This document shows, piece after piece, positions 16,308 through 28,478 of a stretch of 32,000 nt of DNA. Source of the stretch: Rhodoferax potami (lineage in GTDB: Bacteria; Pseudomonadota; Gammaproteobacteria; Burkholderiales; Burkholderiaceae_C); contig NZ_JAVBIK010000001.1 in assembly GCF_032193805.1 (NCBI RefSeq), forward strand, positions 1,070,033 through 1,102,032, in the 5' to 3' direction. The position numbers and the translations under genes were made by a program. The first letter of the stretch is position 1. Every line of letters starts with the position of its first letter. Under the pieces are notes generated by a model. It did no database searches. It saw only the letters and a list, made by a program, of their open reading frames with translations, and was not told where the DNA came from.

Positions 16308-16320
16308 AATACGCAGCTCT

Positions 16321-16410
16321 GGAAGCTTGGCCGAGCGGTTTAAGGCACCGGTCTTGAAAACCGGCGAGGGTTTATCCCCTCCGTGAGTTCGAATCTCACA
16401 GCTTCCGCCA
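16321..16410 (+). tRNA. tRNA-Ser (anticodon UGA), with CCA encoded
   Basis: Hand-folded cloverleaf. Acceptor GGAAGCT/AGCTTCC, D arm GCC/GGC, anticodon stem CCGGT/ACCGG with loop CTTGAAA. Long variable arm (GAGGG..CCCTC), T arm GTGAG-TTCGAAT-CTCAC, discriminator G and CCA. Confidence 0.93.
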
Positions 16411-16659
16411 TTCTGGCTTTGCAGCGCAAAGCCTGTCTATCAACAGCGCTTCGCGCTCGTTCTCCATCATCGCCGCAATCATCCATTGCGTCGGGTCCTC
16501 TCCTAATTCAATAGCAAAGTTTCCAGCAATGGCGGGGCTTAGTTTGCCTTTCGTCCTTGCGTTCGTGATCGTGCTTGGCACGATATTGAACAGTCGCGCC
16601 CATTCAGATGCGCTCTTGATGGCAAGCGCTTTATTCAGTAATTCGATGGTTTTGGGCAT
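16396..16659 (-). CDS. phage repressor-like small HTH protein
   Basis: 87 aa from the ATG at 16659 (GGAG 7 nt upstream): MPKTIELLNKALAIKSASEWARLFNIVPSTITNARTKGKLSP... has an HTH-like pattern. It runs opposite to the phage structural genes and sits next to att, as I recall for phiRSM3 ORF15. Its last 4 codons and stop lie inside the tRNA gene. Confidence 0.6.
   Translation of the reverse strand: MPKTIELLNKALAIKSASEWARLFNIVPSTITNARTKGKLSPAIAGNFAIELGEDPTQWMIAAMMENEREALLIDRLCAAKPEWRKL
16398..16410 (+). repeat. attL core: 13-bp direct repeat ACAGCTTCCGCCA (the 3' end of tRNA-Ser)
   Basis: Identical 13-mer at 27184-27196. The 11 bp to the left match 6/11 (GTTCGAATCTC vs GTCCGAAAGCG). Confidence 0.75.
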
Positions 16660-16688
16660 GTCTGGCTCCTTCGGTTCGGGAAATTTTC

Positions 16689-16758
16689 GCACCAAACGTG
16701 AAAAAAAGCTTGCACCAAACGTGAACTGGCCTCTACATTTCATTTCACTAAACGTGAA
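16689..16758. promoter_or_regulatory. three direct repeats CAC(C/T)AAACGTGAA, operator or iteron candidates in the repressor/Rep divergent control region
   Basis: GCACCAAACGTGAA at 16689-16702 and 16712-16725 (23-bp period), and CACTAAACGTGAA at 16746-16758 (33 bp further on). The third copy sits in the palindrome TTTCAC-N5-GTGAAA. A weak rightward TTGCAC-N18-TACATT (16710-16739) overlaps repeat 2. Confidence 0.45.
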
Positions 16759-17232
16759 AAGAAATTTAAGCGGCCATGCAAAAACACCTCAACGATTTAC
16801 GGAACCCTGTGCAGTCATCCCCTGCGCAGGTTGGCTTGGCCGCTTCCCCTGCGCAATCTGAACAGGGTTCCACCACTTCCGGTCTGTTTACCTTATCAAC
16901 AGCCACAAAGCGATTCCAAGGACCGTCGCAGCAAAAACGTATCGGCTCATTCCCCTTTTCGAGTTTGTCTGCCGTTTCTTTTTCACGGTCTTTGCTGGTG
17001 GAGCTAACCAAGCCGGCTCTGTCGGTAGCCATGGCCGGCGGCCGCGCGCTTCTTCTTCCGTCATCTGCACTTACCTCCCCTTTCTGCCTTTGCATTATCG
17101 GCACCCCTTTGGCTGCTTCATGCCAAGCTAAAGCGCTGGAAGGGGCCCCGCTTGCGGGGAAGGCATCCGGCGCGATAGCGCAAGAGCTGCCCCCCGTTGG
17201 TAACACGGGGGGATCATTCCGGAGCGTGCCAA

Positions 17233-18510
17233 ATGTCTAAGACAAACCCCATAGTTGTCGAAGGCGATCAGATCAAGCTCCGCCTTCAGGCCGAACGCAC
17301 AGCCCACAACACCCCTATCCATGTCGATTGGGTCCGCTTCACCTGCTTACTGCGCAGTGTTACCCCTGACTTCTTGACCCGTCGCGGTCCAGTCCTTCCC
17401 ACTCGGGATATGTTGGCTAAACGCTCCGTGGCGTCGGTCGGTCGAATGGTCGTTCATAAGCCCCGTTACAACGACGAGCTGAGCGAGTCCGAGCAAGATC
17501 GCGTTCACCGGCTTATTCGCTGCACTCTTGAAGCCTACGAAGCCGAACACCAAACCCCCGCTTTTCAGTGGGCATCCGGTCAAGCTCTCGAACTCGCAAA
17601 AGAGATCGTGGAAGCCTTGGGTGAAGAGTTTGAAGTCTCTCCAGAGATCAAGGGCGGTAAAGACTTCTACAAGTACTCATTCATCATCGAACGCAAGGGC
17701 CACCCCTGCGGCTGGGTGGGGTTCATGGCTGGTTCAAACAGCCACAGCGCACAAGCGCAAAACCAGACCATTCACGCCAACATTGAAGGCCACGCTTGTA
17801 CGTTTGCCTCTGCCGGTTGGACTGACCGCATAGCTGACCTGATCGACAAGCACGAAGCAAAGATTACCCGTGCTGACTTGGCCCTAGATCTCTTCGATGG
17901 TGGCCTTGATATGGACGGTCTCAAAGACTTGTATCTCTCTGGTGGCTTCGACGTTCGCGGACGTAGGCCGCAAACAGACGTCAAGGGCGATTGGGTCAAT
18001 GGTCGTGAACGCTCCTTCTACGTTGGCTCTCGTAAGAACGGGAAAGAAACCAACATCTACGAAAAAGGCGACCAACTTTTCGGGCGTGAAGCAAACAGCC
18101 CATGGGTCCGCATTGAGCTGCGTTACGGCGATCAAAACCGCGTCTTGCCTTCCGACATTTTCCGCCGCCCTGCCGACTTCTTTGCAGGCGCTTCCGACTG
18201 GCATCAGCTCCAGCTCGTGAAGCACGAAGCCCCCGCAATCCCTCAAAAGATTTCAGTTCACAAAGCTTTGCCCTTGCAGACGGTCAAGGCTGAGATTTCC
18301 AGAAACCTCCGCTGGGCCTTCACGTCTGCTGCTCCCACGATTGCCGCCGCTTTCAAGTACCTGAGTGAGTCCGAATTCTTGGAGCTGTGCGACTGGCGCA
18401 AACACAAATTGCCAGGGCGACTCCGCAAGTTTTCAGAGTCCGATTTGCTCGGCGCATTTTCAGTAACCAACAGCGGCGGGGGTGCTGGCCACACCTTATT
18501 AGCCGCTTAA
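17233..18510 (+). CDS. rolling-circle replication initiation protein (Rep_trans / pII-RstA-like)
   Basis: About 425 aa from the ATG at 17233. Motifs IHVDWVRFTC, RADLALDLFDG, SFYVGSRKNGKETNIYEKG and WVRIELRYG are typical of the phage replication-initiation-factor family. Confidence 0.85.
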   Translation: MSKTNPIVVEGDQIKLRLQAERTAHNTPIHVDWVRFTCLLRSVTPDFLTRRGPVLPTRDMLAKRSVASVGRMVVHKPRYNDELSESEQDRVHRLIRCTLEAYEAEHQTPAFQWASGQALELAKEIVEALGEEFEVSPEIKGGKDFYKYSFIIERKGHPCGWVGFMAGSNSHSAQAQNQTIHANIEGHACTFASAGWTDRIADLIDKHEAKITRADLALDLFDGGLDMDGLKDLYLSGGFDVRGRRPQTDVKGDWVNGRERSFYVGSRKNGKETNIYEKGDQLFGREANSPWVRIELRYGDQNRVLPSDIFRRPADFFAGASDWHQLQLVKHEAPAIPQKISVHKALPLQTVKAEISRNLRWAFTSAAPTIAAAFKYLSESEFLELCDWRKHKLPGRLRKFSESDLLGAFSVTNSGGGAGHTLLAA

Positions 18511-18536
18511 CAAAACCGGCCACGAAAGACAAAACC

Positions 18537-18872
18537 ATGCGTATGAAAGCACAGCAAACCCTCTTCGGTATCAAGGCAAGTGAAGGCCAAGTTGAAGACA
18601 ACAAATTCAGCTCTACAACCTTCTACCTGCCAGCCGACTTAGCAGCAAACGCCAGTTCAAAAACACTCGGCATCGTCACAGTCCCCTACAAGTTTGGAGA
18701 CGCCTCCGAGTTCTCCAAGTGGGCGCACCTTGAGAAATCATGGCCTGCTGCCGGTGTTCCTGTTGACGTCGAATTCGACATCGTTGCCGGTAAGGATGCC
18801 CAAGGCCGTGACGCCGCCAAGGTCGTGTTGGTAGGTATCCAAATTCGCCGCGCTGCGGGCGCTCAGGCCTAA
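18537..18872 (+). CDS. probable ssDNA-binding protein (pV-like), assigned by position
   Basis: 111 aa with the ATG at 18537, immediately after Rep and of typical size. No motif recognised, so the function rests on synteny only. Confidence 0.5.
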   Translation: MRMKAQQTLFGIKASEGQVEDNKFSSTTFYLPADLAANASSKTLGIVTVPYKFGDASEFSKWAHLEKSWPAAGVPVDVEFDIVAGKDAQGRDAAKVVLVGIQIRRAAGAQA

Positions 18873-18874
18873 AC

Positions 18875-19096
18875 ATGCCCCGATACATCGTCCAGTCGAA
18901 AAGCACGGGCCGCCTTCTCGTTCCTTCGTCGGACGATGGTCAACCCGAATGGACCCTCGACCTCAAAAAAGCAGGCGTTGGCGTTGTCCCTGAAATCGAT
19001 CGTGCTGTGCAGCTCGTCGAAGACTGGTGCGATGTTGACGACCTCCCCCAAATCATCGATCTCGACCGATTGGGAACGCAGGACGACTACCAGTGA
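18875..19096 (+). CDS. hypothetical small acidic phage protein
   Basis: 73 aa. Starts 2 nt after the preceding stop. Acidic C-terminus. Confidence 0.55.
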   Translation: MPRYIVQSKSTGRLLVPSSDDGQPEWTLDLKKAGVGVVPEIDRAVQLVEDWCDVDDLPQIIDLDRLGTQDDYQ

Positions 19097-19212
19097 AAGC
19101 ACTCCGCAACATCCCCGCCGCTTGGGTCTACATCGCCCAGGCATTCACCACCAGCGCCGAACTCTTCCGCATGGGATGGCAAGACGCAAAACGAACCTTA
19201 AAGGCCCCCTGA
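19093..19212 (+). CDS. hypothetical 39-aa phage ORF (GTG start)
   Basis: GTGA overlap with the previous stop and TGATG-type overlap with the next start. Sequence VKALRNIPAAWVYIAQAFTTSAELFRMGWQDAKRTLKAP. Found by hand; below the ORF-track length cut-off. Confidence 0.35.
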   Translation: MKALRNIPAAWVYIAQAFTTSAELFRMGWQDAKRTLKAP

Positions 19213-19334
19213 TGGAGTACCAATGCACAAACCCCGAATGTGGATGGACTGGCGACAACCCAGACGAATCCAACGACGGCGAAGGCAGCCCCGTTTGCCC
19301 TGAATGTGACCACCCTTGTGAGTACGAGGACTGA
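19212..19334 (+). CDS. 40-aa zinc-ribbon-like phage protein
   Basis: MEYQCTNPECGWTGDNPDESNDGEGSPVCPECDHPCEYED has CxxC...CxxC. Start and stop overlap the neighbouring ORFs by 1 nt. Confidence 0.45.
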   Translation: MEYQCTNPECGWTGDNPDESNDGEGSPVCPECDHPCEYED

Positions 19335-19468
19335 TGGACTACGCATCGTTAGGCGTCACCCCTGAAGCTGTCGGTTACGCATGGGCTTTCGGCTTCGGCT
19401 CCGTCGTCCTCTGCTACCTGTTCGGCTACTCCATCGGGGTTATCAAAACCGCCATTAACAAGATTTGA
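19334..19468 (+). CDS. 44-aa hydrophobic protein (pVII/pIX-like minor coat candidate)
   Basis: MDYASLGVTPEAVGYAWAFGFGSVVLCYLFGYSIGVIKTAINKI has a single TM helix. ATGA overlap with the preceding ORF. Confidence 0.45.
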   Translation: MDYASLGVTPEAVGYAWAFGFGSVVLCYLFGYSIGVIKTAINKI

Positions 19469-19483
19469 AACCGCAACGTTAAG

Positions 19484-19497
19484 CACTGCGCGCAGTG
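19484..19497. promoter_or_regulatory. 14-bp perfect palindrome upstream of the major coat gene
   Basis: CACTGCG|CGCAGTG followed by TTT, located 56 nt before the coat ATG. Hairpin or attenuator candidate. Confidence 0.3.
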
Positions 19498-19552
19498 TTT
19501 AGCGGTGTCGATTTCCGGCATCAATCAACCAACTTTTCTAAGGAAAACTGAA

Positions 19553-19777
19553 ATGAACTTCAAGCAAAAAATGGCTCGTCTGTCTGCAATCGCTTTGGCT
19601 ACTGGTGCAGGTGTTTCCGCACACGCTGCCGGTACTGATCCTGTGTCCACCCTCTTGGGCGGAATCGACCTGACTGCCGTTGCAGCTGCCGTGCTCGTCA
19701 TCGGCGCTCTGGTCGTTGGCATCACCATGTCCTTCAAGGGCGTGGACGTGTCCAAGCGCGCTATCAAGAAGGTCTAA
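19553..19777 (+). CDS. major coat protein (pVIII-like)
   Basis: 74 aa. Signal peptide ...GVSAHA|AGTDP, an acidic N-terminus in the mature part, a hydrophobic core AVAAAVLVIGALVVGI and a basic C-terminus KRAIKKV. AAGGA RBS present. Confidence 0.8.
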   Translation: MNFKQKMARLSAIALATGAGVSAHAAGTDPVSTLLGGIDLTAVAAAVLVIGALVVGITMSFKGVDVSKRAIKKV

Positions 19778-19783
19778 GCACCT

Positions 19784-19885
19784 ATGTCAGACGCTGCCGC
19801 CGTTTCCCTGTTATGGGGCTTAATCGTCGCCGTTGGCGCCCTCGGCGGCATTGCGTTTGTCATCGGCATGAGGTCAACACCATGA
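19784..19885 (+). CDS. 33-aa hydrophobic protein (minor coat candidate)
   Basis: MSDAAAVSLLWGLIVAVGALGGIAFVIGMRSTP. ATGA overlap with the pIII-like start. Confidence 0.4.
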   Translation: MSDAAAVSLLWGLIVAVGALGGIAFVIGMRSTP

Positions 19886-21207
19886 GAAAAAATCTTTTTC
19901 GCTTGGCGTTGGCCTTGTGTCTGTCTTTGCCGGTAGTTGTCCAGGCTAACCCCGTCTTTCCCGCCACCACATCAGGCAACACCACCAGTTACGGCGAAGG
20001 CACCTATTCAAACGCTACCTATGCCGCCGCTGCTGTTGCCACCACTGCGGCCGGTGCCATCGCAGTTGAATACCGCACCCAAATCGCTACCGCTGCCGGT
20101 GCCGTTTTCCCGATCGTTACTCGCGCATTGCCTTCTACTGCTGCGATTGCCGGTGCCGCGCGGTACTGCCTTGCAAACGTCGCCTGTTACGGCACTGCCG
20201 CTGCTGCTGCCGCTATCGGCGTCATTGCTTCCCATTACGGCTACGACTACGAAAACACGCCCACCGGCCCTGTAATCACTCGAAATGACCCCAACTCGTG
20301 CACCTCGTACCCGTGCACGCAGTTCGCATATGCCCCTGATAGCCGCTTGCCAACTCCCTCATGGTTCACCACCACCGAAAAGGCTTGCAAAGCCTTTGTT
20401 TCCGCTTGGAATGCCTACGGGGGCCTAGCTCGCCGTGAGTTTTACTACGTCGAAGGTCTTACTTGCATGATGCGCCAAGATAACGGCGGCTGGTGGGGTG
20501 TTGCAGGTAACGACCTCCAGCGCAGAACCATTGAATCCGGAACACCTAGCAAGCTACCCGCAACCCCTGCGGAGCTTGCATCCGACATTGAAGCCAGCGC
20601 TAAGCCCGACACCGCGCAGTCAACTGACGCCAAGAAAACCGTTCTCACAGAGTCCGCTAAATCAGGGTACGAAGTACCCTTGAGTCGCCCTACCTCTATC
20701 GACGTTCCGAAGCCTGTAGTTACTCAAAACCCAACACACACCGATTTAGGTGGCGGCAAGACAAAGACCACTACAAAACGCACGTCTGTCACCTGTACGC
20801 CTCCTGATTGCGTAGCAATCGAAACCACCATCGAACAGGTCAAGGATCTTGGTGTTGGAACCACCACAACCACCACCACCGAAACCCCCGCTGATGTTGT
20901 CCAGGACGTGCCGCTCTCAGATGTCCCCAAGCTTTACAAACGTAAGTATGAAAGCGGGATAGTCGGCGTTTGGACTGAAAAGAAGGCACAGCTCTCAAGC
21001 TCCGGTCTCGGCTCCCTCCTTCAGGCCATGATGCCCAATATTGGCAGTTCAGGCGGTTGCCCTGTCTTCTCCATCCCCGCCAAAATCGGCCCCCTTTCGT
21101 TCGGGTCCGGCTTCTCTGGTCCCCCTTGCTACATCTGGGAATTTTGCAAAGTTGTCGTTCTGCTCGGCGCTGCTTTCCTCGCCCGAGCTCTTGTCTTTGG
21201 AGGTTAA
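19882..21207 (+). CDS. adsorption / minor coat protein (pIII-like)
   Basis: 441 aa from the ATG at 19882. Signal peptide LCLSLPVVVQA, Thr-rich linkers (GTTTTTTTETP) and a C-terminal membrane anchor VVVLLGAAFLARALVFGG. Position before the pVI/pI genes. Confidence 0.7.
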   Translation: MRKNLFRLALALCLSLPVVVQANPVFPATTSGNTTSYGEGTYSNATYAAAAVATTAAGAIAVEYRTQIATAAGAVFPIVTRALPSTAAIAGAARYCLANVACYGTAAAAAAIGVIASHYGYDYENTPTGPVITRNDPNSCTSYPCTQFAYAPDSRLPTPSWFTTTEKACKAFVSAWNAYGGLARREFYYVEGLTCMMRQDNGGWWGVAGNDLQRRTIESGTPSKLPATPAELASDIEASAKPDTAQSTDAKKTVLTESAKSGYEVPLSRPTSIDVPKPVVTQNPTHTDLGGGKTKTTTKRTSVTCTPPDCVAIETTIEQVKDLGVGTTTTTTTETPADVVQDVPLSDVPKLYKRKYESGIVGVWTEKKAQLSSSGLGSLLQAMMPNIGSSGGCPVFSIPAKIGPLSFGSGFSGPPCYIWEFCKVVVLLGAAFLARALVFGG

Positions 21208-21210
21208 AAA

Positions 21211-21546
21211 ATGGCAGGTCTAATCGCCGCGATTTATGGCAAAGTCGCCGCCCTCATTGCATGGTTTGGAAACCTCTTTGTCGCCGTGTTTGTGGCCCTC
21301 TGGGACATATCCCGCGACCTCTTTGCATGGGTGTTTGAACAGGTGCTAACCGTTGCCGTTTCTGGTGTTAGTGCCGTCGATGTTTCGGGCCTCACAAACA
21401 ACCTGCAAGGGGCCTTCGTCATCCCTCAAAAAATCCTTGAGGTCGCCTCTGCCATTGGCCTCGGTCAAGCCCTCGCAATCATTGCAACAGCCATAACAAT
21501 CCGCCTTGGTTTGCAGTTGATTCCGTTCACCCGTCTGGGGTCCTAA
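21211..21546 (+). CDS. pVI-like minor coat / membrane protein
   Basis: 111 aa with multiple hydrophobic helices. Located directly between the pIII-like and Zot-like genes. Confidence 0.65.
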   Translation: MAGLIAAIYGKVAALIAWFGNLFVAVFVALWDISRDLFAWVFEQVLTVAVSGVSAVDVSGLTNNLQGAFVIPQKILEVASAIGLGQALAIIATAITIRLGLQLIPFTRLGS

Positions 21547-22767
21547 ATGCTGAATGGACTCCAAGGCATACCGGGCTCTGGCAAGAGCTACGAAGCCACC
21601 GTTTATCACGTCCTGGCAGCGCTTAAGCGTGGGCGCAAGGTCATTACAAACCTACCTCTAAACATAGAGCAGTTCTCTGCCATCGACCCTGCTTATGCCG
21701 ACCTGATAGAAGTTCGTCGCCGCCCTGCAAAGGTCTTGGGCACATGGGACGCAAACAGGGTGGACGACAAGGGCAACGGCCTAGCGTTTGAGGTAATAGA
21801 GGGCTACGAAGACAAGCGCCATTCCATAGAGGCCGTAGAGACCACGCACGGCTTCAGAGGTAACCTCTCTGCCCCTGTCGCGGTCTTTGGCAACGTCTGG
21901 GACTACTACACCGAATGGAAGCACCCAGAGACCGGCCAAGGCCCCTTATTTGTTGTCGATGAATGCCACGTTCCTATGCCTCGCACGGGTACAAGCGTTT
22001 GGGTTATCGAGTGGTACAAGCTGCACCGACATTTCAACGTTGACGTGTTGTTGATGACCCAGAATTTCAGGCACATGAATGGAGACATTGCCGACCTGTT
22101 GGCCATGCTCATCAAGGTTCGTAAGGCCGACATTCTGGGCAAGAAAAACGAATACATCAGGCGGGTGCATGGCGGCTTTCGCGGTGCTGTCATCAGCGAA
22201 GAGGTCCGACCCTACAAGCCCGAATTTTTCCAGCTCTACAAGAGCCACACGCAAGGCAACAGCGTTAGCGAAAGCAGCGCCGACGATGTGACCCCCGCTA
22301 TCGTCAAATTCAAGCGTTACACCCGCATTCTTTGGGTGTGCATCCTGCTCGGGGCTGTTTTCGTCGGATATCGCATCTTTGCCCCCAAGTCCAAAACAGT
22401 CACAACCGTTACGGTGGAAAAAATTGATACTCCAACTGCTGCCGCTGCTCCAGCTGGTGCCGCTTCTGGTTTGCCGGTTGTTGTCCAGGGCGAAACCTCC
22501 ACAATCCCCGAACCCTACGAAAACCAGTCAATCCACATGACAGGCCGAATCAAGATGGGCGACAAGGAAACCTACACATTCACCCTCGCCCAAAATGGTC
22601 TAGTCGTGAATCACATCACAGATACAGAGCTGCGCAAGGCTGGCTATAAATTCACCGGCACAAGCGATTGCACGGGCTTCATAGAGTGGGACAAGAAGGC
22701 TCGCGCCGTCTCCTGCAACTTCCCGTCCCAACAAATGGCTGCTGAAGGTATCCAGAAAAAAGGCTGA
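21547..22767 (+). CDS. zot: Zot-like / pI assembly ATPase
   Basis: 406 aa. N-terminal Walker A GIPGSGKSYEA, Walker B-like LFVVDECH, and a central TM helix (ILWVCILLGAVFVGYRIF). Confidence 0.88.
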   Translation: MLNGLQGIPGSGKSYEATVYHVLAALKRGRKVITNLPLNIEQFSAIDPAYADLIEVRRRPAKVLGTWDANRVDDKGNGLAFEVIEGYEDKRHSIEAVETTHGFRGNLSAPVAVFGNVWDYYTEWKHPETGQGPLFVVDECHVPMPRTGTSVWVIEWYKLHRHFNVDVLLMTQNFRHMNGDIADLLAMLIKVRKADILGKKNEYIRRVHGGFRGAVISEEVRPYKPEFFQLYKSHTQGNSVSESSADDVTPAIVKFKRYTRILWVCILLGAVFVGYRIFAPKSKTVTTVTVEKIDTPTAAAAPAGAASGLPVVVQGETSTIPEPYENQSIHMTGRIKMGDKETYTFTLAQNGLVVNHITDTELRKAGYKFTGTSDCTGFIEWDKKARAVSCNFPSQQMAAEGIQKKG

Positions 22768-22837
22768 GATCTGAGTGCATACAACGTCCTGAATACCAAC
22801 TCACGGCCGATACAATTCAGAAAAATTGGGAGCGGCC

Positions 22838-23134
22838 ATGCACAAAACGGTTTTAGCCTTTGCATTTCTGTCGATTTTTCAGACAGCATCGGCATCAGAC
22901 ATATTCACTCAAAAGCCCACCATATCTGCCGGTGGCGTTAGCACCGTGCCTCAGACCCAGAGACAAGCGGCGGCGGCTGGTCAAGAAAACTGCGCTGCCT
23001 TGGTCCAAGAACGCCGAGCTATCGAACACATAGACCAAAAGCAAATTTGGGTGCCGATTGAGCAGCAGAATGCCAACTATCACCGCATGCGAGCTATCAA
23101 GACCGAGATGGGTGCTCGTGGCTGTGGCTACTGA
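22838..23134 (+). CDS. small secreted protein, unknown function
   Basis: 98 aa from the ATG at 22838. Signal peptide AFAFLSIFQTASA|SD, and 2 Cys in the mature part. Confidence 0.5.
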   Translation: MHKTVLAFAFLSIFQTASASDIFTQKPTISAGGVSTVPQTQRQAAAAGQENCAALVQERRAIEHIDQKQIWVPIEQQNANYHRMRAIKTEMGARGCGY

Positions 23135-23268
23135 TCCGACCTCACGTCCAGCCATCGCGTTCATTTCCAATTACGCTTTTCGCGAGTTTGTTTGCATTCG
23201 TCTGAATATCCATCAGATTCTGCATCGCAAATTACTTACATCCCTCAATCACTACCCTGGAAACACTC

Positions 23269-23892
23269 ATGCAGCAGGCAACAATTGATATTTCAAAAGC
23301 CGATAGCGGCTCACCATCGTTTTCCCGTCTGGTTGTATCTCTATTGAATTTGGTTGCATACCAACGGTGCAACACCTCTATTGGTTATCCAGGGCTACCG
23401 AATGTAAAGGTCGAAATGGAACTCGGCGATACGATGCTTTATGAAACGACTCAGGACGGGATACTAGAAGTTCGACTCACTGCGATTTACGGCTCTGCTG
23501 CTAAGTTTACAGTTAGCCAAGTTGCACCTGGGTTTGGTCTGGGAGCTGCTATGACGGCAAGTGATCCCAACAACCTTCCTTTCAGTGAGCACGAACGCAC
23601 CCAGATTGCGGAGAGTATCGAAGCTACTAAGAGGGAGTTGGTAAATTCGGGACATCACACGACAGAACAGCTTTCACTAATTTTTCAAAGACTGGATGAA
23701 ACTTATAACGCTTCATCCAAATTGGGAAAAAAGGATTGGCAGAATTATGTCAATAACACACTTACTGCTTTGTGCATCTCAGCAGCCTTTTCTACTGAAG
23801 TCAGAGAAGCATTTTTTGTGACTGTCAACTCAGCTTTTTCTTGGTTGTTTACAAATACGGCCGTTCTGCTTCAATACTCGACCTCTCCCTAA
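23269..23892 (+). CDS. cargo ORF A, hypothetical 207-aa protein
   Basis: A long ORF in AT-rich DNA, where chance ORFs are short. Helical middle region and a hydrophobic C-terminal ~45 aa. No family recognised and no clear SD. Confidence 0.55.
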   Translation: MQQATIDISKADSGSPSFSRLVVSLLNLVAYQRCNTSIGYPGLPNVKVEMELGDTMLYETTQDGILEVRLTAIYGSAAKFTVSQVAPGFGLGAAMTASDPNNLPFSEHERTQIAESIEATKRELVNSGHHTTEQLSLIFQRLDETYNASSKLGKKDWQNYVNNTLTALCISAAFSTEVREAFFVTVNSAFSWLFTNTAVLLQYSTSP

Positions 23893-23964
23893 CGCTCTCG
23901 GGCAAAGGTGTCTGCATTCGTGCTTTATCTGCTGGAGAAATTAACGTGTCCTTTACAGCGAATT

Positions 23965-23986
23965 GATAGACGGTCCTCCGTCTATC
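23965..23986 (+). terminator. stem-loop downstream of cargo ORF A
   Basis: GATAGACGG-TCCT-CCGTCTATC, a perfect 9-bp stem, 73 nt after the stop. It is followed by GCTTCTT only, with no strong U-tract. Confidence 0.35.
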
Positions 23987-24259
23987 GCTTCTTGGGGCTA
24001 GAAGCGTCGCTAGCTCTTTGAGCACTTCCCAAAAAAGCGGATTTTCACATGTCGACACGGACGCAATCATCAATAGCACTATCCCTTAAAGCAAAATCTT
24101 GCGGATCATTACAGTACTTACATATGCGCAAACGCACATAAATATATTAATAAAAATACTTCTTGTGCCTTCTGCAATTATTTAATTGTAATTTATCTCG
24201 AATCAGAGAAAATTTTTTCACATACCTCTCGGCACCCTTAAACTTGCTCAAATATCATT

Positions 24260-24766
24260 ATGGACATAATAAAAACCATTACAGACTGGCCCGTAATTGT
24301 TCAGGGCGCGCTTGGCTCAGCTTTGTTTTGGGTCATTCTAGAGACGGGTCAGCGTCTACTGAAGCAAGCAACATCTAGATTTTCAAGTGACCAAATGGCT
24401 GCAAATTATTTTGCATTGGCAGCGCATGAGGCTGAAGGAAAATTTGGAGAAAAAGCACGTTTCATGTGTCTGTATGCTGCTCTTCACTACTGCTCGAAAG
24501 CCGCAATCGTAATTGTTCTTTCTCTCGTATTGGGGCAGGTATTTGGGATATTCGCGACTGTCGGTTATCTCTTGGCTGTATTTTTCCTTTTTCGAGCTTT
24601 AGCGTTTGTTCCCCACACAGCTAGCTGGGGCACAACTGTGCAAAGAGAAAGCAAGTTCAAAGACGTTGTGACAGCCATACGATCAGACAAGAGCACTCCT
24701 CCGCGAGATACTAACAAGGTATCTGAGTCAAATCCGCCTGTGCCATCAATTAAGCGGGAAACCTAA
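24260..24766 (+). CDS. cargo ORF B, predicted membrane protein (about 3 TM helices)
   Basis: 168 aa. Hydrophobic segments WPVIVQGALGSALFWVILE and AAIVIVLSLVLGQVFGIFATVGYLLAVFFLF, with a hydrophilic tail. Preceded by ~360 nt of ~32% G+C DNA. Confidence 0.55.
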   Translation: MDIIKTITDWPVIVQGALGSALFWVILETGQRLLKQATSRFSSDQMAANYFALAAHEAEGKFGEKARFMCLYAALHYCSKAAIVIVLSLVLGQVFGIFATVGYLLAVFFLFRALAFVPHTASWGTTVQRESKFKDVVTAIRSDKSTPPRDTNKVSESNPPVPSIKRET

Positions 24767-25045
24767 TTTTGCTCGCTAAATTAAATGAAATAATTGCAAT
24801 GCAATGTTGTATTTTGAATTTCAGTTTTTTTAATTTCGGGTTTCACGCAGATTAAAATTACTCCAGCTCTACCCTCAATAACTATTTTTATCTTTTTTAA
24901 TTTGCCTCGGCATTCGCAAATTTGCTTTAGATCCGAGCAATCAGACAGATAGATCCGTTATCTTTTAATGGTGATTTAATTTTAAAATACTTAACACCAA
25001 CCTACACAGGGAGCATCTGCACCTTATTTATATTATTAATTTTCC

Positions 25046-25621
25046 ATGGAAAATAAGTATATAAAATCGTTAAAATTGGCAGTTAATAACTCTCGGGATT
25101 TGGAGCTTTTGCAATCTGACAGAGATCCAGATTTCACCTTAGCTACAATTTCCAAAGAAGTCATATTGGCTATCCTCAATGACTTCGTGCCACACCTCTA
25201 CAGGCTAGGTCTATCCAGTTCAAGCTTGCTGAACGGAAACTGCATACAAGTCCATGATCAATTGCAGAGCTTTCTCTTACTTCGCGGAATCAGCTCTTAT
25301 ATGACCATTGGAAGTATGCATGGAGGCGATTGGTCCTACTGCCAAACTTCGATAGAAAAGCTCAAAAATGATTTGGTGAGGGCTAGTAGAGATGAAGCGA
25401 TAAGAGTCCACACGTGGCTGACGCTTGGCGATGCATCAATCATCGACTGGACAGGCGGGGCTTGGCATGACGTTCAGTCTCAGTTGGATCAGCCAGCTGA
25501 AAAGTGCCTGACTTATTTCCCCCAAGGGGCACAAGACGCGGACTACTACCACCTTCCGTATCTTTTAGGTCGTGATTTTTTGATCAAAACAAATTGTATA
25601 TGTCATGTGAGGCGGACTTAG
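25046..25621 (+). CDS. cargo ORF C, possible transglutaminase-like / papain-fold Cys-His-Asp protein
   Basis: 191 aa. GNC66IQVHDQLQSFLLLRGISSYMTIG, then VH122TWLTLGDASIID134WT. This resembles the G-x-C...H-x-W...D-x-T spacing of transglutaminase-like cysteine peptidases. Motif-level evidence only. Confidence 0.55.
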   Translation: MENKYIKSLKLAVNNSRDLELLQSDRDPDFTLATISKEVILAILNDFVPHLYRLGLSSSSLLNGNCIQVHDQLQSFLLLRGISSYMTIGSMHGGDWSYCQTSIEKLKNDLVRASRDEAIRVHTWLTLGDASIIDWTGGAWHDVQSQLDQPAEKCLTYFPQGAQDADYYHLPYLLGRDFLIKTNCICHVRRT

Positions 25622-25752
25622 ATGCCTTCCATCCGAATGTCATTTCACACATCACAATAGTTTGGAAGTGGGAATCTGTCCATTTAACTTGGATTCATGT
25701 GCTTTACAAATTGAGCCCTCCGCATCCACCGTTATGGTCACAGATTCATTTT

Positions 25753-26121
25753 TTAAAAGTCTCTGAAATATGCATCGTCTTGAACGATGCTTTCCCAGCT
25801 CCTCCCACTATCAACAAGCCCTTGAAAAAATGGGGTGAGTTTGTATCCTTCCCAAACATATCCCCTGATCGACAAACGGTTGGTCTTTTCAGCCACCGCC
25901 CGCCCTAAAAAGTTCACGCTGATTTGGGCGCTCTTCCATGCCTGGACAAGTTGGCGCGCTTTCCGCGCTAAGTCCTTTGCCCACTGCGGTGTAGTCGGAG
26001 CAAAGTTAAAAACACACTCCATCAAACGCATGATGCGCGGGGAATTCTTGAAGCCGTTATGAAACAACTCGCGTTGAAAACGCAGTGCTTCTGGGTGCTT
26101 CAAGTAGTTCTTTGCAATCAT
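25753..26121 (-). CDS. cargo ORF D, hypothetical 122-aa protein
   Basis: ORF in ~45% G+C DNA, convergent with ORF C. AAGG lies ~10 nt upstream of the ATG. No family recognised. Confidence 0.45.
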   Translation of the reverse strand: MIAKNYLKHPEALRFQRELFHNGFKNSPRIMRLMECVFNFAPTTPQWAKDLARKARQLVQAWKSAQISVNFLGRAVAEKTNRLSIRGYVWEGYKLTPFFQGLVDSGRSWESIVQDDAYFRDF

Positions 26122-26150
26122 GGTCTTGGCCTTTCAAGTTACCGGATTCC

Positions 26151-26447
26151 CTAGATTCCGAGCTGGTCCCCTTTAGGTTTCCAAGCTGCCATCGTTTGGG
26201 CTTGTCCGTTACCGTCTTTCCCTGAGTTCGTCGCTGTAACGAAATGGCGCATAGGGTGGGCTTGGATGTGCGGGGAAGCTTTGTAAAGCGAAGCTTTATG
26301 AATACCCCGCGCAGCCACGACCAAGCGCAGCGGCCCTATGCAGAGTGGAGTGAAGGCGACTAACTCAGAGAATGCCAGGACAAAGCAAAGACGGTGGCGC
26401 GGAATGCGATAGGGATCGTCACCCGAATGGGCCATGACCTTAGGCAT
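26151..26447 (-). CDS. cargo ORF E, doubtful 98-aa ORF
   Basis: An open frame ending 29 nt upstream of ORF D. No SD, odd composition, no recognisable motif. Confidence 0.2.
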   Translation of the reverse strand: MPKVMAHSGDDPYRIPRHRLCFVLAFSELVAFTPLCIGPLRLVVAARGIHKASLYKASPHIQAHPMRHFVTATNSGKDGNGQAQTMAAWKPKGDQLGI

Positions 26448-26532
26448 GGTTGCGAAGCAATAGAGCCCGGGCCTTTAGGCATCGCCCTGCCTTAAATACT
26501 TACGCAAATGATAATCAATACGTTAAAATTTA

Positions 26533-26551
26533 TGCTATTAAAACAATAGCA
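26533..26551. promoter_or_regulatory. inverted repeat TGCTATT-N5-AATAGCA upstream of the recombinase gene
   Basis: Perfect 7-bp arms, 25 nt before the ATG at 26576, in an AT-rich stretch. Confidence 0.25.
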
Positions 26552-26575
26552 AAGCGGCCAGAATTCGGGCGATAA

Positions 26576-27151
26576 ATGATTTTTGGATATGCGCGGGTTT
26601 CAACCACTGAGCAAGATACAGCCCTACAAATTACCGCCCTGAAGCTTGCTGGGGCAAAAACCATTTATCAGGAAAAAACGTCATCCGTTGGTGCTCGTCC
26701 TGAACTTCGGAAAATGCTCGGGTGCCTTACAAAAGACGATTGCGTCATTGTTTACAAGCTCGATCGACTGGCACGAAGCCTAAAGGATTTGCTACAAATT
26801 TTGGAACAAGTAGAAACAACCGGTGCGAAGTTTCGAAGCCTTACAGAGCCAATCGACACAGTTACTCCAGCTGGAAAACTCATGCTCAACATCTTGGGGA
26901 GCTTTGCTGAATTTGAACGTTCACTCATTCGTGAACGGGCAATGGCAGGGCAAAAAGAAGCAATGAAAGCGGGCAAACATTGCGGACGACCTCGAACCCT
27001 TACCGACGAACAAGAAAACGATATAAATCGTTTATACAACCAAGGCTTTTACAGCTTGGCCAACCTCGCTCAGATTTTTAGCTGCTCTCCAAGCGTCATA
27101 AAACGCACTGTGTATCGCGTTCAAAAACCTTCGTCCTCTTCTCTCCGTTAA
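26576..27151 (+). CDS. small serine recombinase (resolvase/invertase family), presumed prophage integrase
   Basis: 191 aa. MIFGYARVSTTEQDTALQ (catalytic Ser motif), VYKLDRLARS, SFAEFERSLIRERAMAG and a C-terminal HTH. The stop lies 32 nt before the attR core. Confidence 0.92.
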   Translation: MIFGYARVSTTEQDTALQITALKLAGAKTIYQEKTSSVGARPELRKMLGCLTKDDCVIVYKLDRLARSLKDLLQILEQVETTGAKFRSLTEPIDTVTPAGKLMLNILGSFAEFERSLIRERAMAGQKEAMKAGKHCGRPRTLTDEQENDINRLYNQGFYSLANLAQIFSCSPSVIKRTVYRVQKPSSSSLR

Positions 27152-27183
27152 ACTTTGGCCTCTGCGGTTGTTGTCCGAAAGCG

Positions 27184-27196
27184 ACAGCTTCCGCCA
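27184..27196 (+). repeat. attR core: ACAGCTTCCGCCA
   Basis: Exact copy of tRNA-Ser positions 16398-16410. Confidence 0.75.
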
Positions 27197-27239
27197 AACA
27201 CTTCTTTGGCGCAGTGCTCAGGCGTCACAACGCCGCCAC

Positions 27240-28478
27240 ATGACCACCGACGCATCCCTTCCCCCACTCTCGACGCTGTTCAAGCACCAGGCTTTCGTCC
27301 GCTATTGGTTTGCCCGGATTGCCGGCATCATGGGCAACCAGATGCTCATGGTGGCGGTGGCTTGGCATATGTATGACCTGACCTCCAGCGCCTGGGACCT
27401 CGGGCTCGTGGGGCTGTTTCAGTTTGTGCCAGCACTAGTGATGACGCTGCCCGCCGGGCATGTGGCCGACCGCCTGCACCGTGGCCGTATCTTTGCCGCC
27501 TGCATGGCCCTACAGGCTGGCGTGGCGCTCACGCTGCTGAGTGCCACTATGGGGAACTATGCATCCCGCGAACTCATCCTGCTCATCTCCGTCGTGTTGG
27601 GCCTAGCCCGCGCCTTCCAGATGCCGGCCCAACAAGCTCTGGTGGCACTGCTGGTGCCCACTAACTTGCTCGGGCGCGCCGTGGCGCTCAGCTCCACCGG
27701 CATGGAGATCGCGGTCATCAGTGGGCCGGCGCTGGGTGGGCTGCTCTACGCGCTCGGGCCTACCAATGTGTACATCTGCTGCACCGTGCTGATGCTGCTC
27801 GCAACCGGCCTGATTCTGGCCGTGCATTACCGGCACAAACCTTCCAACCTGGCCGCCAGTTGGTCCACCCTGTTTGCCGGCGTGCGCTTTGTGTGGGAAC
27901 GCAAACTGCTGCTGGGTGCCAGCTCACTAGACTTGTTTGCAGTGTTGCTGGGGGGCGCCACTGCCTTGCTGCCGATTTATGCGCGCGACATCCTGCACAC
28001 CGGGCCTACGGGCCTGGGCTTTTTGCGGGCGGCTCCTGCGGTAGGCGCGCTCGCCATGTCGCTGGTAATCACCCGCTGGCCCTTGCGCCGGCATGTGGGC
28101 AAGCGGCTGCTGAGCGCCGTGGCGGTGTTCGGGCTGGCCACCGTGCTGTTCGGCCTATCCGAATCCTTCTGGTTGTCCCTGTTCGCGCTCACCGTGACCG
28201 GTGCGGCGGACTGCATCAGCGTGGTCACCCGCAATACCCTGGTTCAGCTGGAAACACCAGACGAGATGCGCGGGCGCGTGGCCGCAGTCAACTCCATCTT
28301 CATCGGCGCCTCCAACCAGTTGGGCGAATTCGAGTCCGGCGCCACGGCTGCCATGTGGGGCCCGGTGGGCTCAGTGGTGGTGGGCGGCATCGGCACCATG
28401 CTGGTGGCAGGCTTGTGGTTCAAGCTGTTCCCGGCTTTGGCTCACCGCGATCACATGGAACCCCAAGGCAAGCGGTAA
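27240..28478 (+). CDS. MFS transporter (MFS_3 / enterobactin-exporter-like)
   Basis: About 412 aa from the ATG at 27240. FVRYWFARIAGIMGNQMLMVAVAWHMYDLT... with about 12 TM helices. The ORF-track start at 27168 would span attR and is rejected. Confidence 0.85.
   Translation: MTTDASLPPLSTLFKHQAFVRYWFARIAGIMGNQMLMVAVAWHMYDLTSSAWDLGLVGLFQFVPALVMTLPAGHVADRLHRGRIFAACMALQAGVALTLLSATMGNYASRELILLISVVLGLARAFQMPAQQALVALLVPTNLLGRAVALSSTGMEIAVISGPALGGLLYALGPTNVYICCTVLMLLATGLILAVHYRHKPSNLAASWSTLFAGVRFVWERKLLLGASSLDLFAVLLGGATALLPIYARDILHTGPTGLGFLRAAPAVGALAMSLVITRWPLRRHVGKRLLSAVAVFGLATVLFGLSESFWLSLFALTVTGAADCISVVTRNTLVQLETPDEMRGRVAAVNSIFIGASNQLGEFESGATAAMWGPVGSVVVGGIGTMLVAGLWFKLFPALAHRDHMEPQGKR

Follow-up and report, generated by a model that had tools for sequence, protein, structure and literature searches.

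Prophage organization and integration

The window, that is, the whole 32,000-nt stretch of DNA analysed, contains a filamentous prophage of Rhodoferax sp. TBRC 17660 that spans 10.8 kb (16398-27196). Its features, from left to right, are the following.

16398..16410, plus strand: attL core ACAGCTTCCGCCA, the left prophage end, forming the 3' end of tRNA-Ser(UGA) at 16321-16410
17197..22767, plus strand: inovirus core genes
17197-18510, plus strand: Rep_trans replication protein (Pfam Rep_trans, 5e-22)
19505-19777, plus strand: coat, inovirus core gene
19813-21207, plus strand: pIII-like, inovirus core gene
21211-21546, plus strand: pVI-like, inovirus core gene
21547-22767, plus strand: Zot/pI (Pfam Zot, 4e-22)
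22826..23134, plus strand: small secreted ORF, 102 aa, with a signal-like segment at the N-terminus; a conserved gene of the phage that borders the cargo slot on the left
23135..25798, plus strand: AT-rich cargo block, 2.66 kb, 42.5% G+C, between two convergent phage genes
23269..23892, plus strand: ORF A, 207 aa; classed as independent single-gene cargo from homologues, model and dN/dS
23893..24259: A-B spacer, 367 nt, its distal 179 nt with 31% G+C
24260..24766, plus strand: ORF B, 168-aa membrane protein; classed as independent single-gene cargo from homologues, hydropathy and dN/dS
24767..25045: B-C spacer, 279 nt, 31% G+C
25046..25621, plus strand: ORF C, 191-aa soluble protein; classed as independent single-gene cargo from homologues, model and dN/dS
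25753..26121, minus strand: ORF D, 122 aa; classed with the phage core and not with the cargo
26122..26575: conserved structured non-coding element, ~450 nt, containing “ORF E” and a palindrome
26151-26447, minus strand: “ORF E”, 98 aa; judged not coding, part of the structured element
26533-26551: palindrome TGCTATT-N5-AATAGCA, inside the structured element
26576..27151, plus strand: small serine recombinase (resolvase/invertase type), the prophage integrase (Pfam Resolvase, 4e-41, and HTH_7)
27184..27196, plus strand: attR core ACAGCTTCCGCCA, the right prophage end, a 13-bp exact copy of 16398-16410

The tRNA gene was detected by both ARAGORN and Rfam. Core genes were assigned through Pfam, PHROG (PHROG 197 was matched at 6e-60) and synteny with three inovirus loci (L016, L017 and L074). 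The recombinase is 99.5% identical to that of a sister prophage (L014).

The mode of integration is as in phiRSM. Like the Ralstonia inoviruses phiRSM1 and phiRSM3, the prophage has an integrase that is a serine recombinase of the resolvase/invertase type. In both cases the att core is 13 bp long and situated at the 3' end of a tRNA-Ser, attP lies between recombinase and repressor, and an extra gene adjoins the recombinase. For phiRSM, the 13-bp att is placed at the 3' end of tRNA-Ser in Table 1 and at the 5' end in the running text of the same paper (PMC4471427). In contrast, sequence relatedness to the phiRSM type is remote: Rep is about 30% identical to cultured inoviruses, and its matches are phiSHP2 and RSS-type phages. 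ORFs A, B, C and D gave no tblastn match in 50,697 GenBank phage records, so they are not phiRSM core genes.

An AT-rich block in a variable cargo slot

The initial annotation had located ORFs A to E, the end of zot (22767), the start of the resolvase (26576) and the two spacers of 367 and 279 nt, and all of these positions and lengths agree with ours. The unexplained stretch that it described is present, with its start corrected to about 23135, because the conserved secreted ORF that follows zot had been overlooked. Homologues of this ORF (44-55% identity) also come after zot in four related loci (L016, L017, L073 and L083).

The cargo slot lies between the stop codons of the small secreted ORF and ORF D, which are convergent. 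These two genes abut in 11 of 13 related inoviruses, while here 2.66 kb (~23135-25798) separates them; the distance from the ORF D start to the zot stop is 3354 bp, against ~440-790 bp in the same 11. In two relatives (L016 and L017) the order is zot, small ORF, D and resolvase, with an empty interval between small ORF and D, and DNA homology to them stops at 23090. Homology to the sister prophage (L014/L015) begins at 25799, and beyond that break a different gene is found there. Other relatives, including this sister prophage at the same chromosomal site, have the slot filled by unrelated genes, such as a 237-aa gene plus DUF922 (L088) or a ParB_N gene (L095). The locus comparison thus bears out that the block, which separates the modules for morphogenesis and integration, consists of accessory DNA missing from related phages. 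Since the slot is empty or otherwise filled in sister phages, it is an ordinary cargo slot of uncharacterised genes and not one new multi-gene system.

In terms of composition, the cargo compares with 54.8% G+C in the phage core and 61.5-63.4% in the host chromosome, the latter below the 65-70% given earlier. The spacers have 31% G+C, and each of the genes A, B and C has an AT-rich spacer 5' of it. The sharp drop noted from a hand count (~32%) is real, as 24081-24259 measures 31.3%. The A-B spacer region contains a 76-aa minus-strand ORF (23849-24079), for which no homologue was found in any fetched locus and which is probably a chance or decaying frame. Promoter and terminator scans of the block gave no more sites than shuffled controls, so a separate transcription of each gene is putative.

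Homologues of A, B and C in other genomes are also mostly lower in G+C than their surroundings, most clearly in high-G+C hosts, and relatives of B were found in the same bacterial family. The recent acquisition from a very different donor, suggested earlier, is therefore not needed.

Three separate conserved families

A, B and C each form their own conserved family under purifying selection (dN/dS 0.17-0.28), with full-length homologues that have the same starts and ends. None of the three matched Pfam, PHROGs, NCBIfam or PADLOC, and the PADLOC models matched none of their families either. With the fold searches of PDB and BFVD, this upholds the view that they are real conserved genes outside the assigned families of these libraries. 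Chance or decaying frames in AT-rich junk DNA would also account for unassigned ORFs with no clear Shine-Dalgarno sequences and promoter scans at chance level. Given the full-length homologues, the dN/dS values and the confident models (pLDDT 91 for A, 83 for C), this explanation is hardly credible, and its validity is restricted to ORF E and, probably, the minus-strand ORF of 76 aa. That long ORFs exceed chance expectation is accordingly true of A, B, C and D, which have full-length homologues and dN/dS support, and fails for ORF E, whose frame is not conserved.

ORF A has two domains, a beta domain at the N-terminus (1-86) and a four-helix domain at the C-terminus (107-189), the latter with the motif LGRKDW. 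Its homologues, of ~200 aa each, fall in 262 representative clusters at E<=1e-3, and dN/dS is 0.18 with dS near saturation. The AlphaFold2 model had no fold match in PDB at E<=0.001. A hydrophobic C-terminus had been proposed, and no segment reaches transmembrane-type hydropathy (maximum Kyte-Doolittle 1.28 over 19 aa). The 54 ORF A genome loci come from many phyla and have no conserved neighbour in common, nor do the 16 full-length ones; one homologue adjoins a TIR-domain gene.

As for ORF B, 53 homologues were found and dN/dS is 0.28. Its N-terminal segment WPVIVQGALGSALFW is invariant, and residues 68-122 form a hydrophobic hairpin. Of the roughly three transmembrane helices first counted, two are clear hydrophobic helices and the third, N-terminal, is borderline. 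In four unrelated neighbourhoods (L008, L009-L011, L012 and L100/L101), of which L008-L012 are chromosomal, ORF B occurs by itself; one further locus (L013) is too short for judging the neighbourhood. Homology to the nearest relative is limited to the ORF itself.

In the case of ORF C, there are five homologues (47-63% identity) and within-family dN/dS is 0.17. The Cys-His-Asp pattern that had been noticed is sound, with Cys66, His122 and Asp134 invariant in the family. In the predicted structure (pTM 0.82), Cys66 is at the start of a helix, and two consecutive strands bear His122 and Asp134. This order and the invariant Cys at a predicted helix start resemble papain-like and transglutaminase-like hydrolases. 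Unlike these, ORF C had no significant Foldseek match (best E 0.47 in PDB and 0.11 in BFVD), its family matched nothing in Pfam even at E 10, a profile search against PDB found no match, and hhalign against one Transglut_core protein was negative. The label “thiol peptidase” was based solely on the invariant residues, and the profile and fold searches do not support it. Some homologues are in tailed prophages, with a giant PBECR1 protein on one side and a KilA-N/AntA and Arc module on the other, or else the gene is in a third context. The accessory regions that they border carry YefM/YoeB; GmrSD with HEPN and a methylase; or a reverse transcriptase with an ATPase.

According to the initial annotation, A, B and C, possibly joined by D, could make up a single novel phage-borne system of several genes in which, for instance, a membrane protein works with a thiol peptidase and further partners. 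The genes are adjacent, on the same strand in the case of A to C, share a low G+C and are all unassigned. However, among 54 loci of A, 8 of B and 12 of C, not one carried a second member of the A, B or C families, an outcome named beforehand as speaking against a system. When all loci were searched by tblastn with A, B, C and D, each locus showed only the query's own family, similarity to the nearest relatives ends at the ORF ends, and neighbours are heterogeneous. The gaps of 279-367 nt are not operon-packed, and D belongs to the ordinary core of this phage group, as it is present in relatives without A, B and C; this, too, had been named beforehand as an outcome against the proposal. A single system is thus very improbable. 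As A, B and C never co-occur elsewhere, they are better read as three independent single-gene morons.

ORF D and the adjacent structured element

ORF D belongs to the phage core and to a modular DNA-binding family. Relatives have an H-NS-type domain at the C-terminus, which is degenerate in this copy. It combines a highly conserved 70-aa N-terminal domain with a degenerate H-NS-like C-terminus, and its last 15 codons are beyond the recombination junction at 25799. There are at least 145 homologues, many with PF00816 and its motif, and the family profile matches the Ler DNA-binding domain (2lev, E 1e-3). ORF D itself did not match PF00816 in the Pfam scan; it has GYVWEG-YK where PF00816-bearing relatives have G(E/Q)(T/S)W(S/T/N)G(R/K)G, so the RG core is missing. 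Also unlike the H-NS/Ler family, the N-terminal 70 residues are a distinct conserved domain, with no Pfam match in ORF D or in the five relatives scanned. The C-terminus is swapped for HHH_5 or other segments in some relatives. ORF D adjoins the resolvase in most related inovirus loci, and its dN/dS is 0.09-0.11.

The region 26122-26575 is the best-conserved DNA of the phage. By its pattern of substitutions, “ORF E” is not a gene, as the reading frame is not conserved. Across the three codon positions, the frame differs from L014 at 4/0/1 sites, with an in-frame stop in L014, and from L073 at 8/8/5 sites with 8 gap columns; the corresponding counts are 8/4/28 for ORF D and 0/1/30 for the resolvase. 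The element has 82-84 predicted pairs, 20-22 of them with compensatory changes, against ~10 in shuffles (0/500 reach the observed value) and 1-7 in slid controls. No Rfam family was matched.

As is known from Ff phages, filamentous phages all require an intergenic region with secondary structure, and the element would most likely be that of this phage, acting as single-strand origin or packaging signal. Similar to the Ff-type region, with its packaging hairpin and complementary-strand origin, it is non-coding, strongly base-paired and more conserved than the flanking genes. It differs in having no sequence similarity or Rfam model and in lying between ORF D and the recombinase, not beside the replication gene. 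Alternatively, it may be a large structured RNA, such as a leader of ORF D or a non-coding RNA controlling ORF D or lysogeny. The element is directly 5' of every fetched ORF D homologue with upstream DNA on its contig (27/27 loci), even where the resolvase is elsewhere, and several invariant G-U pairs are on the ORF D sense strand. On the other hand, the opposite strand, presumed to be the virion strand, folds at least equally (-73.6 vs -68.6 kcal/mol) and has 22 covarying pairs against 20, no other intergenic-region candidate was seen in the phage, and Rfam gave no family. We regard the RNA as possible but doubtful.

Possible roles of the cargo genes

Morons were defined for lambdoid phages as extra genes that separate two genes neighbouring each other in related phages, and dedicated promoters and terminators are part of the classical definition. 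As in phage morons and prophage cargo hotspots, the block lies between genes contiguous in related phages, its base composition is unlike that of the phage, the filling varies by relative, and A, B and C each move separately. Differences from classical morons are the carrier, a single-stranded-DNA filamentous phage, the stacking of three morons in one slot, and promoter- and terminator-like sites at the level of shuffled controls. A, B and C have the same orientation as the morphogenesis operon and could be transcribed by read-through from it. Unlike type II toxin-antitoxin genes, they are unpaired, spaced apart and have no conserved partner.

The cargo might instead serve the chronic cycle of the phage or host physiology (envelope, pili, biofilm or phage secretion), as lysogenic conversion unrelated to other phages. 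The three genes come directly after the morphogenesis operon, in the position that ctxAB has directly after zot in CTXphi, and in the membrane protein B conservation is highest in a transmembrane helix. In addition, phiRSM-type phages alter twitching motility and virulence of the host (PMC4471427). Such a role seems rather unlikely, however, as most related phages have none of the three genes, and the fetched homologues of A and B are on bacterial genome or metagenome contigs with no inovirus genes nearby, clearly chromosomal in L008-L012; any role therefore cannot be inovirus-specific.

For A, B and C, we infer that superinfection exclusion or defence against phages is the likeliest role. The genes would be expressed from the prophage, to the benefit of the lysogen or the resident phage, and would most likely exclude or abort other phages. 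B may work in the inner membrane by means of its invariant N-terminal helix, C may be a cytoplasmic Cys-His-Asp hydrolase-like enzyme, and A a two-domain protein with beta domain and helical bundle. Since the models of A and C match no known fold, these activities are conjecture. The context of some homologues is in favour: those of C are at accessory regions with toxin-antitoxin-, GmrSD- or reverse-transcriptase-type genes, and a TIR gene is beside one A homologue. Neighbours of A and B homologues are mostly housekeeping, not defence, genes.

Toxin-antitoxin modules are known from inoviruses, as are superinfection-exclusion genes that have been verified by experiment (PMC6813254). Like ctxAB of CTXphi, the accessory modules of Pf phages and the genes of Roux et al. 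2019 (PMC6813254), A, B and C are accessory to an integrated inovirus and lie apart from its modules for replication and morphogenesis, but have no sequence or fold similarity to them. Overall, the AT-rich block is probably the filling of a cargo slot, with three separate single-gene morons that would most likely exclude other phages, next to the core gene D and a non-coding element that contains ORF E.

Integration and gene content of the prophage

The last 13 bases of the tRNA-Ser(UGA) gene, ACAGCTTCCGCCA, lie at 16398-16410, and an exact second copy is found at 27184-27196. Between these att repeats are the genes of a filamentous phage, ending with a serine recombinase. The features discussed here are:

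16321-16410, tRNA-Ser(UGA)
16396-16743, minus strand, repressor-like gene, between the att repeats
Also between the att repeats: Rep_trans replication gene, coat, pIII-like, pVI-like and Zot/pI genes
22826-23134, 102-aa ORF
23269-23892, plus strand, ORF A
24260-24766, plus strand, ORF B (RAE19_05235)
25046-25621, plus strand, ORF C (RAE19_05240)
25753-26121, minus strand, ORF D
26122-26575, conserved non-coding element
26151-26447, minus strand, 'ORF E'
26576-27151, resolvase-type serine recombinase with Resolvase and HTH_7 domains
27168-28478, MFS transporter ORF

The integration mode is that described for phiRSM phages, which have a resolvase/invertase integrase and an attP between integrase and repressor (PMC4471427). 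Their att is 13 bp long and corresponds to the tRNA-Ser 3' end according to Table 1 of that paper, and to the 5' end according to its running text (PMC4471427). The window prophage has the same combination of a small serine recombinase and a short att core equal to the tRNA-Ser 3' end, present at both prophage ends. Its Rep is ~30% identical to those of phiSHP2 and RSS-type phages. The phage is otherwise remote from cultured inoviruses, with no DNA match.

At 16689-16758, GCACCAAACGTGAA occurs three times in direct orientation, in two exact copies and one with 86% identity, at spacings of 23 and 33 nt. The copies cover the 5' end of the repressor-like gene, whose start is at 16743, together with the adjacent upstream DNA, and look like candidate operator or iteron sites. 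At the other end, the MFS transporter ORF is listed from a TTG start at 27168, upstream of the attR core (27184-27196), so its first codons would be phage-derived. The homologue in the sister prophage locus L014 was called as 412 aa, compared with 436 aa in the window, and the true start is therefore probably further downstream than 27168.

A variable slot between zot and ORF D

ORF D has at least 145 homologues, many on 6-10-kb contigs, which is inovirus size. We compared its contexts in two related inovirus loci, L016 (a 10-kb contig) and L017 (a Curvibacter prophage), and in IMG/VR and JGI metagenome loci. The order in these relatives is Rep, coat, pIII, pVI, Zot, a small ORF, a convergent D homologue, a conserved non-coding stretch and the resolvase. 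The small ORF corresponds to the one at 22826-23134, which directly follows zot, has a signal-peptide-like N-terminus, shows 44-55% identity in related inoviruses and is without family assignment.

In L016 and L017 the small ORF and D abut. Among the 13 distinct relatives with both D and zot on the contig, the distance from the D start to the zot stop is ~440-790 bp in 11, compared with 3354 bp in the window. DNA similarity between the window and L016/L017 stops at 23090 and restarts at about 25908-25932. The sister prophage, represented by L014 and L015, sits at the same chromosomal site and has a 99.5% identical resolvase. It aligns to the window at 92.6% DNA identity from 25799 to the window end and not before; past this junction, which lies 15 codons before the ORF D stop, L014 codes for an unrelated protein. 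Elsewhere the same position is filled by a 237-aa gene and a DUF922 protein (the L088 group) or by a ParB_N protein (L095). These homology breaks and slot contents place the cargo at about 23135-25798. The slot is usually empty and variably filled.

In terms of base composition, G+C is 61.5% in the left host flank and 63.4% in the right one, lower than the 65-70% that the initial annotation had given for the chromosome. Its ORFs, coordinates and spacers were all correct on re-check; the 102-aa secreted ORF was absent from its list. The cargo, at 42.5% G+C (~31% in the two long spacers), differs from the phage core at 54.8%, and GC3 is 0.40-0.48 in A, B and C against 0.58-0.64 in rep, pIII and zot. 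Such a foreign composition is a feature of phage moron or cargo hotspots. So are the position of the insert between two genes adjacent in related phages and the presence of different genes in one slot, as in L014, L088 and L095.

An integron-cassette or IS-type insertion was considered and rejected, as the flanks of the cargo have no direct or inverted repeats of note. Morons are also expected to have a promoter and terminator per unit and to be expressed from the prophage. A consensus scan of the cargo for promoters and terminators stayed at chance level, with 7 promoter-like sites (5.9 expected) and 4 terminator-like sites (4.0 expected).

The slot gene of the sister prophage (L014 7156-7542; L015 687-1034) is a different one, whose product contains YKHRSCFIHRGE. 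This product has an R-x4-H pattern like that of HEPN nucleases and no Pfam match, and the contig ends inside the gene.

A second arrangement, in L081, L097, L098, L096 and L099, has the resolvase immediately after zot. Beyond the resolvase lies a gene whose similarity to ORF D is limited to the N-terminal 39-47 residues. It lies ~3-4 kb from the resolvase in L081, L097 and L098, and a few hundred bp from it in L096 and L099. A piece of the structured element precedes it at least in L081, L097 and L098.

Three separate gene families in the cargo

The initial annotation had proposed that the block might encode a multi-gene system. Searching every fetched locus with A, B, C and D by tblastn, we found that the sole match was always the family used for fetching that locus. 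A second cargo-family member was absent from all 54 A, 8 B and 12 C loci. Similarity to the nearest relatives of B and C ends at the ORF ends. Since the families never co-localise, the block reads as three stacked, independent single-gene morons and not as one system.

The expectation that the genes are conserved and under selection was borne out. All three have homologues. dN/dS is 0.17 in the C family and 0.28 for B; the value for A, 0.18, is a rough ratio, since the dS of the pair (2.66) is near saturation.

A type II toxin-antitoxin module was rejected, given that the genes are 279-367 nt apart, have no conserved partners and have no toxin or antitoxin Pfam match. A 76-aa minus-strand ORF at 23849-24079 was also set aside, with no homologue in any fetched locus.

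Database searches placed none of the cargo in a described group. Scans of A-E and the 76-aa ORF with Pfam, PHROGs, PADLOC and NCBIfam gave no usable match. Extending the Pfam and PADLOC scans to the families of A, B and C gave none either, and PDB profile searches with these three found none. Against PADLOC-DB v2, A-E had no match at E<=1, the 23 B-family members had none, and the 40 A-family members had only isolated matches (E 0.003-0.01), each to another model. In GenBank phages, DNA and protein searches returned nothing for the block or for A-D, and tblastn with A, B, C and D in 50,697 phage records found no match. The profile and structure searches proposed at the outset leave A, B and C without a family by profile, A without a PDB fold match, and C without one in PDB or BFVD.

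ORF A. Searched exhaustively with HMMER, 1.84 billion representatives yielded 262 clusters at E<=1e-3, and ~80 of these are full-length proteins of ~200 aa. The family conserves G39, R69, F105, an LGRKDW loop and W192. The AlphaFold2 model (pLDDT 91) predicts a beta domain of eight strands (1-86) and a domain of four helices (107-189), and Foldseek matches nothing in PDB at E<=0.001. A second group, of 220-250-aa proteins, has only the helical domain in common with ORF A and contains no Pfam domain.

The 54 fetched loci come from Syntrophaceae, Betaproteobacteria, Nitrospirales, Paceibacterota, Desulfosarcina, Massilia, Lysobacter, Xanthomonas, Gallionella, Acidobacteriota, Brocadiaceae, Pseudomonas and others. 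No neighbour gene is conserved across the 16 full-length loci; those sampled encode a TIR protein, a radical SAM enzyme, an ion channel, an ATP-grasp enzyme and PBP1. In the seven high-G+C hosts among these loci (L026-L028, L030-L032 and L020) the homologue is 7-16 G+C points below its locus, and in low-G+C loci it is similar or higher. No relative was found in IMG/VR, and nothing in the plasmid collection. The family is patchy across many phyla. With this spread, no Pfam entry and a confident predicted fold without a PDB match, ORF A would be the most interesting candidate in the cargo for a single-gene determinant of phage exclusion or abortive infection.

ORF B. Of the 53 homologues of this gene, most are in Burkholderiales (Rhodoferax, Giesbergeria, Limnobacter) and Moraxellaceae. 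Near the N-terminus the segment WPVIVQGALGSALFW is invariant, and residues 68-122 make up a hydrophobic hairpin. The homologues stand alone in each of four different neighbourhoods; one further 1.4-kb contig is too short to judge.

ORF C. Only five homologues were found, at 47-63% identity, with 62 invariant columns. Cys66, His122 and Asp134 are invariant in the six sequences. In the AlphaFold2 model (pLDDT 83, pTM 0.82) a helix begins at Cys66, and His122 and Asp134 are on successive strands (120-127 and 132-134). The conserved Cys-His-Asp, in the canonical order and in this predicted secondary-structure setting, is what papain-like and transglutaminase-like cysteine hydrolases would present.

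The invariant residues and their order are the basis for reading C as a putative thiol peptidase; profile and fold similarity do not back it. Pfam searches at E<=10 gave nothing relevant to the papain-like and transglutaminase-like superfamily, and neither did the PDB profile search. The model had no Foldseek match in PDB or BFVD at E<=0.001, and comparing the C family with a Transglut_core protein by hhalign gave a probability of 0.4%, a negative result. We keep the transglutaminase idea, which comes from reading the motif, as a lead only.

In seven loci a C homologue lies in podovirus-like prophages with an SU10-type adaptor; its position is fixed in L001-L007 and L082. There it directly follows the gene for a 2269-2333-aa PBECR1 protein and precedes a convergent KilA-N or AntA gene with Arc-type repressors; in L001, L002 and L006 it lies at 10001-10576. 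Beyond the KilA-N/AntA and Arc module the content is variable, with YefM/YoeB, or GmrSD, HEPN and a methylase, or a reverse transcriptase and an ATPase. In P22, sieA has this location, next to the immI region. Another three loci have the C homologue in a third context, and only one relative was found in IMG/VR.

ORF D, a core gene with H-NS-type relatives

ORF D belongs to the phage core. Its N-terminal 70 residues are almost invariant in the family (25 invariant columns in 20 sequences), and the C-terminus is modular, with PF00816 in many members, HHH_5 in one and unassigned segments in others. The PF00816 matches are confined to C-terminal residues (85-118), and the members bearing them have the core motif G(E/Q)(T/S)W(S/T/N)G(R/K)G. 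The family profile matches the Ler DNA-binding domain (2lev, E 1e-3).

ORF D itself differs from H-NS in having no PF00816 match at E<=1 and no W-x-G-R-G core, whereas its relatives P0216 and P0226 have the domain (1e-10 and 1e-9). Its motif reads GYVWEG-YK; ORF D and its closest relatives keep the domain spacing, have GYVWEG-(D/Y)K instead and do not match PF00816. A second difference concerns the N-terminal coiled-coil oligomerisation domain of H-NS, homology to which finds no support in ORF D or its relatives. The 70-aa N-terminal domain, common to ORF D and homologues P0210-P0329, has no Pfam or PDB match in ORF D and the scanned relatives, five of which were scanned against Pfam.

The ORF D family is related to xenogeneic silencers, is carried by phages and is located beside an AT-rich cargo slot.

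A structured non-coding element 5' of ORF D

The initial annotation had listed a doubtful 98-aa ORF E. Compared with L014, its frame has 4/0/1 differences at codon positions 1/2/3 and an in-frame stop; compared with L073, it has 8/8/5, eight gap columns and no equivalent start. The same count gives 8/4/28 for D and 0/1/30 for the resolvase. In L017, L077 and L080 the tblastn matches jump frame. With a frame neither kept in relatives nor biased to third positions, 'ORF E' is not a gene.

The stretch that it overlaps, 26122-26575, is the best-conserved DNA of the phage, 98.7% identical to L014 and 84-87% to L073 and L083. It is still 72-75% identical to phages whose proteins are 45-60% identical. 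We found it directly 5' of every fetched D homologue for which the contig includes upstream DNA (27 loci), also where the resolvase lies in another place.

Copies of the conserved element
Window, 26122-26575
L014, 6329-6782
L073, 699-1154
L016, 2364-2865
L017, 9485-10000
22 further loci

For nine sequences, RNAalifold gives 84 predicted pairs on the strand of ORF D, 20 of them kept through changes on both sides, and 82 on the other strand, with 22 kept in this way. Shuffled partners give ~10 such pairs, with 0 of 500 reaching the observed number, and partners slid by 1-3 columns give 1-7. The compensatory pairs of this ~450-nt element include long-range helices. Rfam covariance models, run over 16000-27500 at E<=1, find the tRNA only, leaving the element without a family.

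Both strands fold and covary equally well. The element is probably the phage intergenic region, that is, a single-strand origin or packaging signal. The constant position 5' of ORF D also bears on another reading, in which the element is no DNA origin and is instead a structured leader RNA of ORF D, or a new large regulatory RNA of serine-recombinase inoviruses. We consider this rather unlikely.

A palindrome, TGCTATT-N5-AATAGCA, lies at 26533-26551, just upstream of the resolvase start. Its GCTA/TAGC core is invariant in nine related phages, and candidate roles for the palindrome are operator, recombinase site and origin site.

Possible function and significance

Neither cargo slots nor morons are new in themselves, and inoviruses often carry genes without an assignment. 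New here are the exact slot, three families lacking annotation (that of A being large), the modular family of ORF D with its H-NS-type relatives, and an undescribed ~450-nt element that covaries. The predicted folds of A and C are without a PDB match, and that of C is also without a viral-structure match.

A variable slot between two convergent genes holds three independently mobile, selected genes, and its right border consists of a core DNA-binding gene (D) and a structured non-coding element. We are highly confident of the architectural conclusions on slot and cargo. The cargo genes would be expressed in the lysogen, each acting separately, most likely against other phages. This assignment is tentative. 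It draws on the accessory and defence regions that C accompanies in tailed prophages, and on the way A, B and C are distributed, patchily, at low G+C and as single genes, which is usual for such functions. It also draws on the verified superinfection-exclusion genes and many toxin-antitoxin pairs of inoviruses (PMC6813254). A role of the cargo genes in phage or host physiology instead seems unlikely to us. That at least one of them is a new single-gene phage-exclusion or abortive-infection determinant is conceivable, if doubtful.

The comparison fixes the slot precisely, from the stop of the secreted ORF after zot to that of ORF D, in a widespread, uncultured group of tRNA-Ser-integrating inoviruses. 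Annotations change accordingly, with ORF D becoming a phage core gene with H-NS-type relatives and 'ORF E' a structured non-coding element. Comparing this slot across genomes is a cheap way to collect the genes that filamentous prophages carry for their hosts. The three conserved, unannotated families, two with confident models, are open to one-gene-at-a-time testing. Should one of them prove to block phage infection, a further single-gene defence family would be gained. Such a result would also mean that small ssDNA prophages trade such genes with tailed prophages, as ORF C is common to this prophage and podovirus-like ones.
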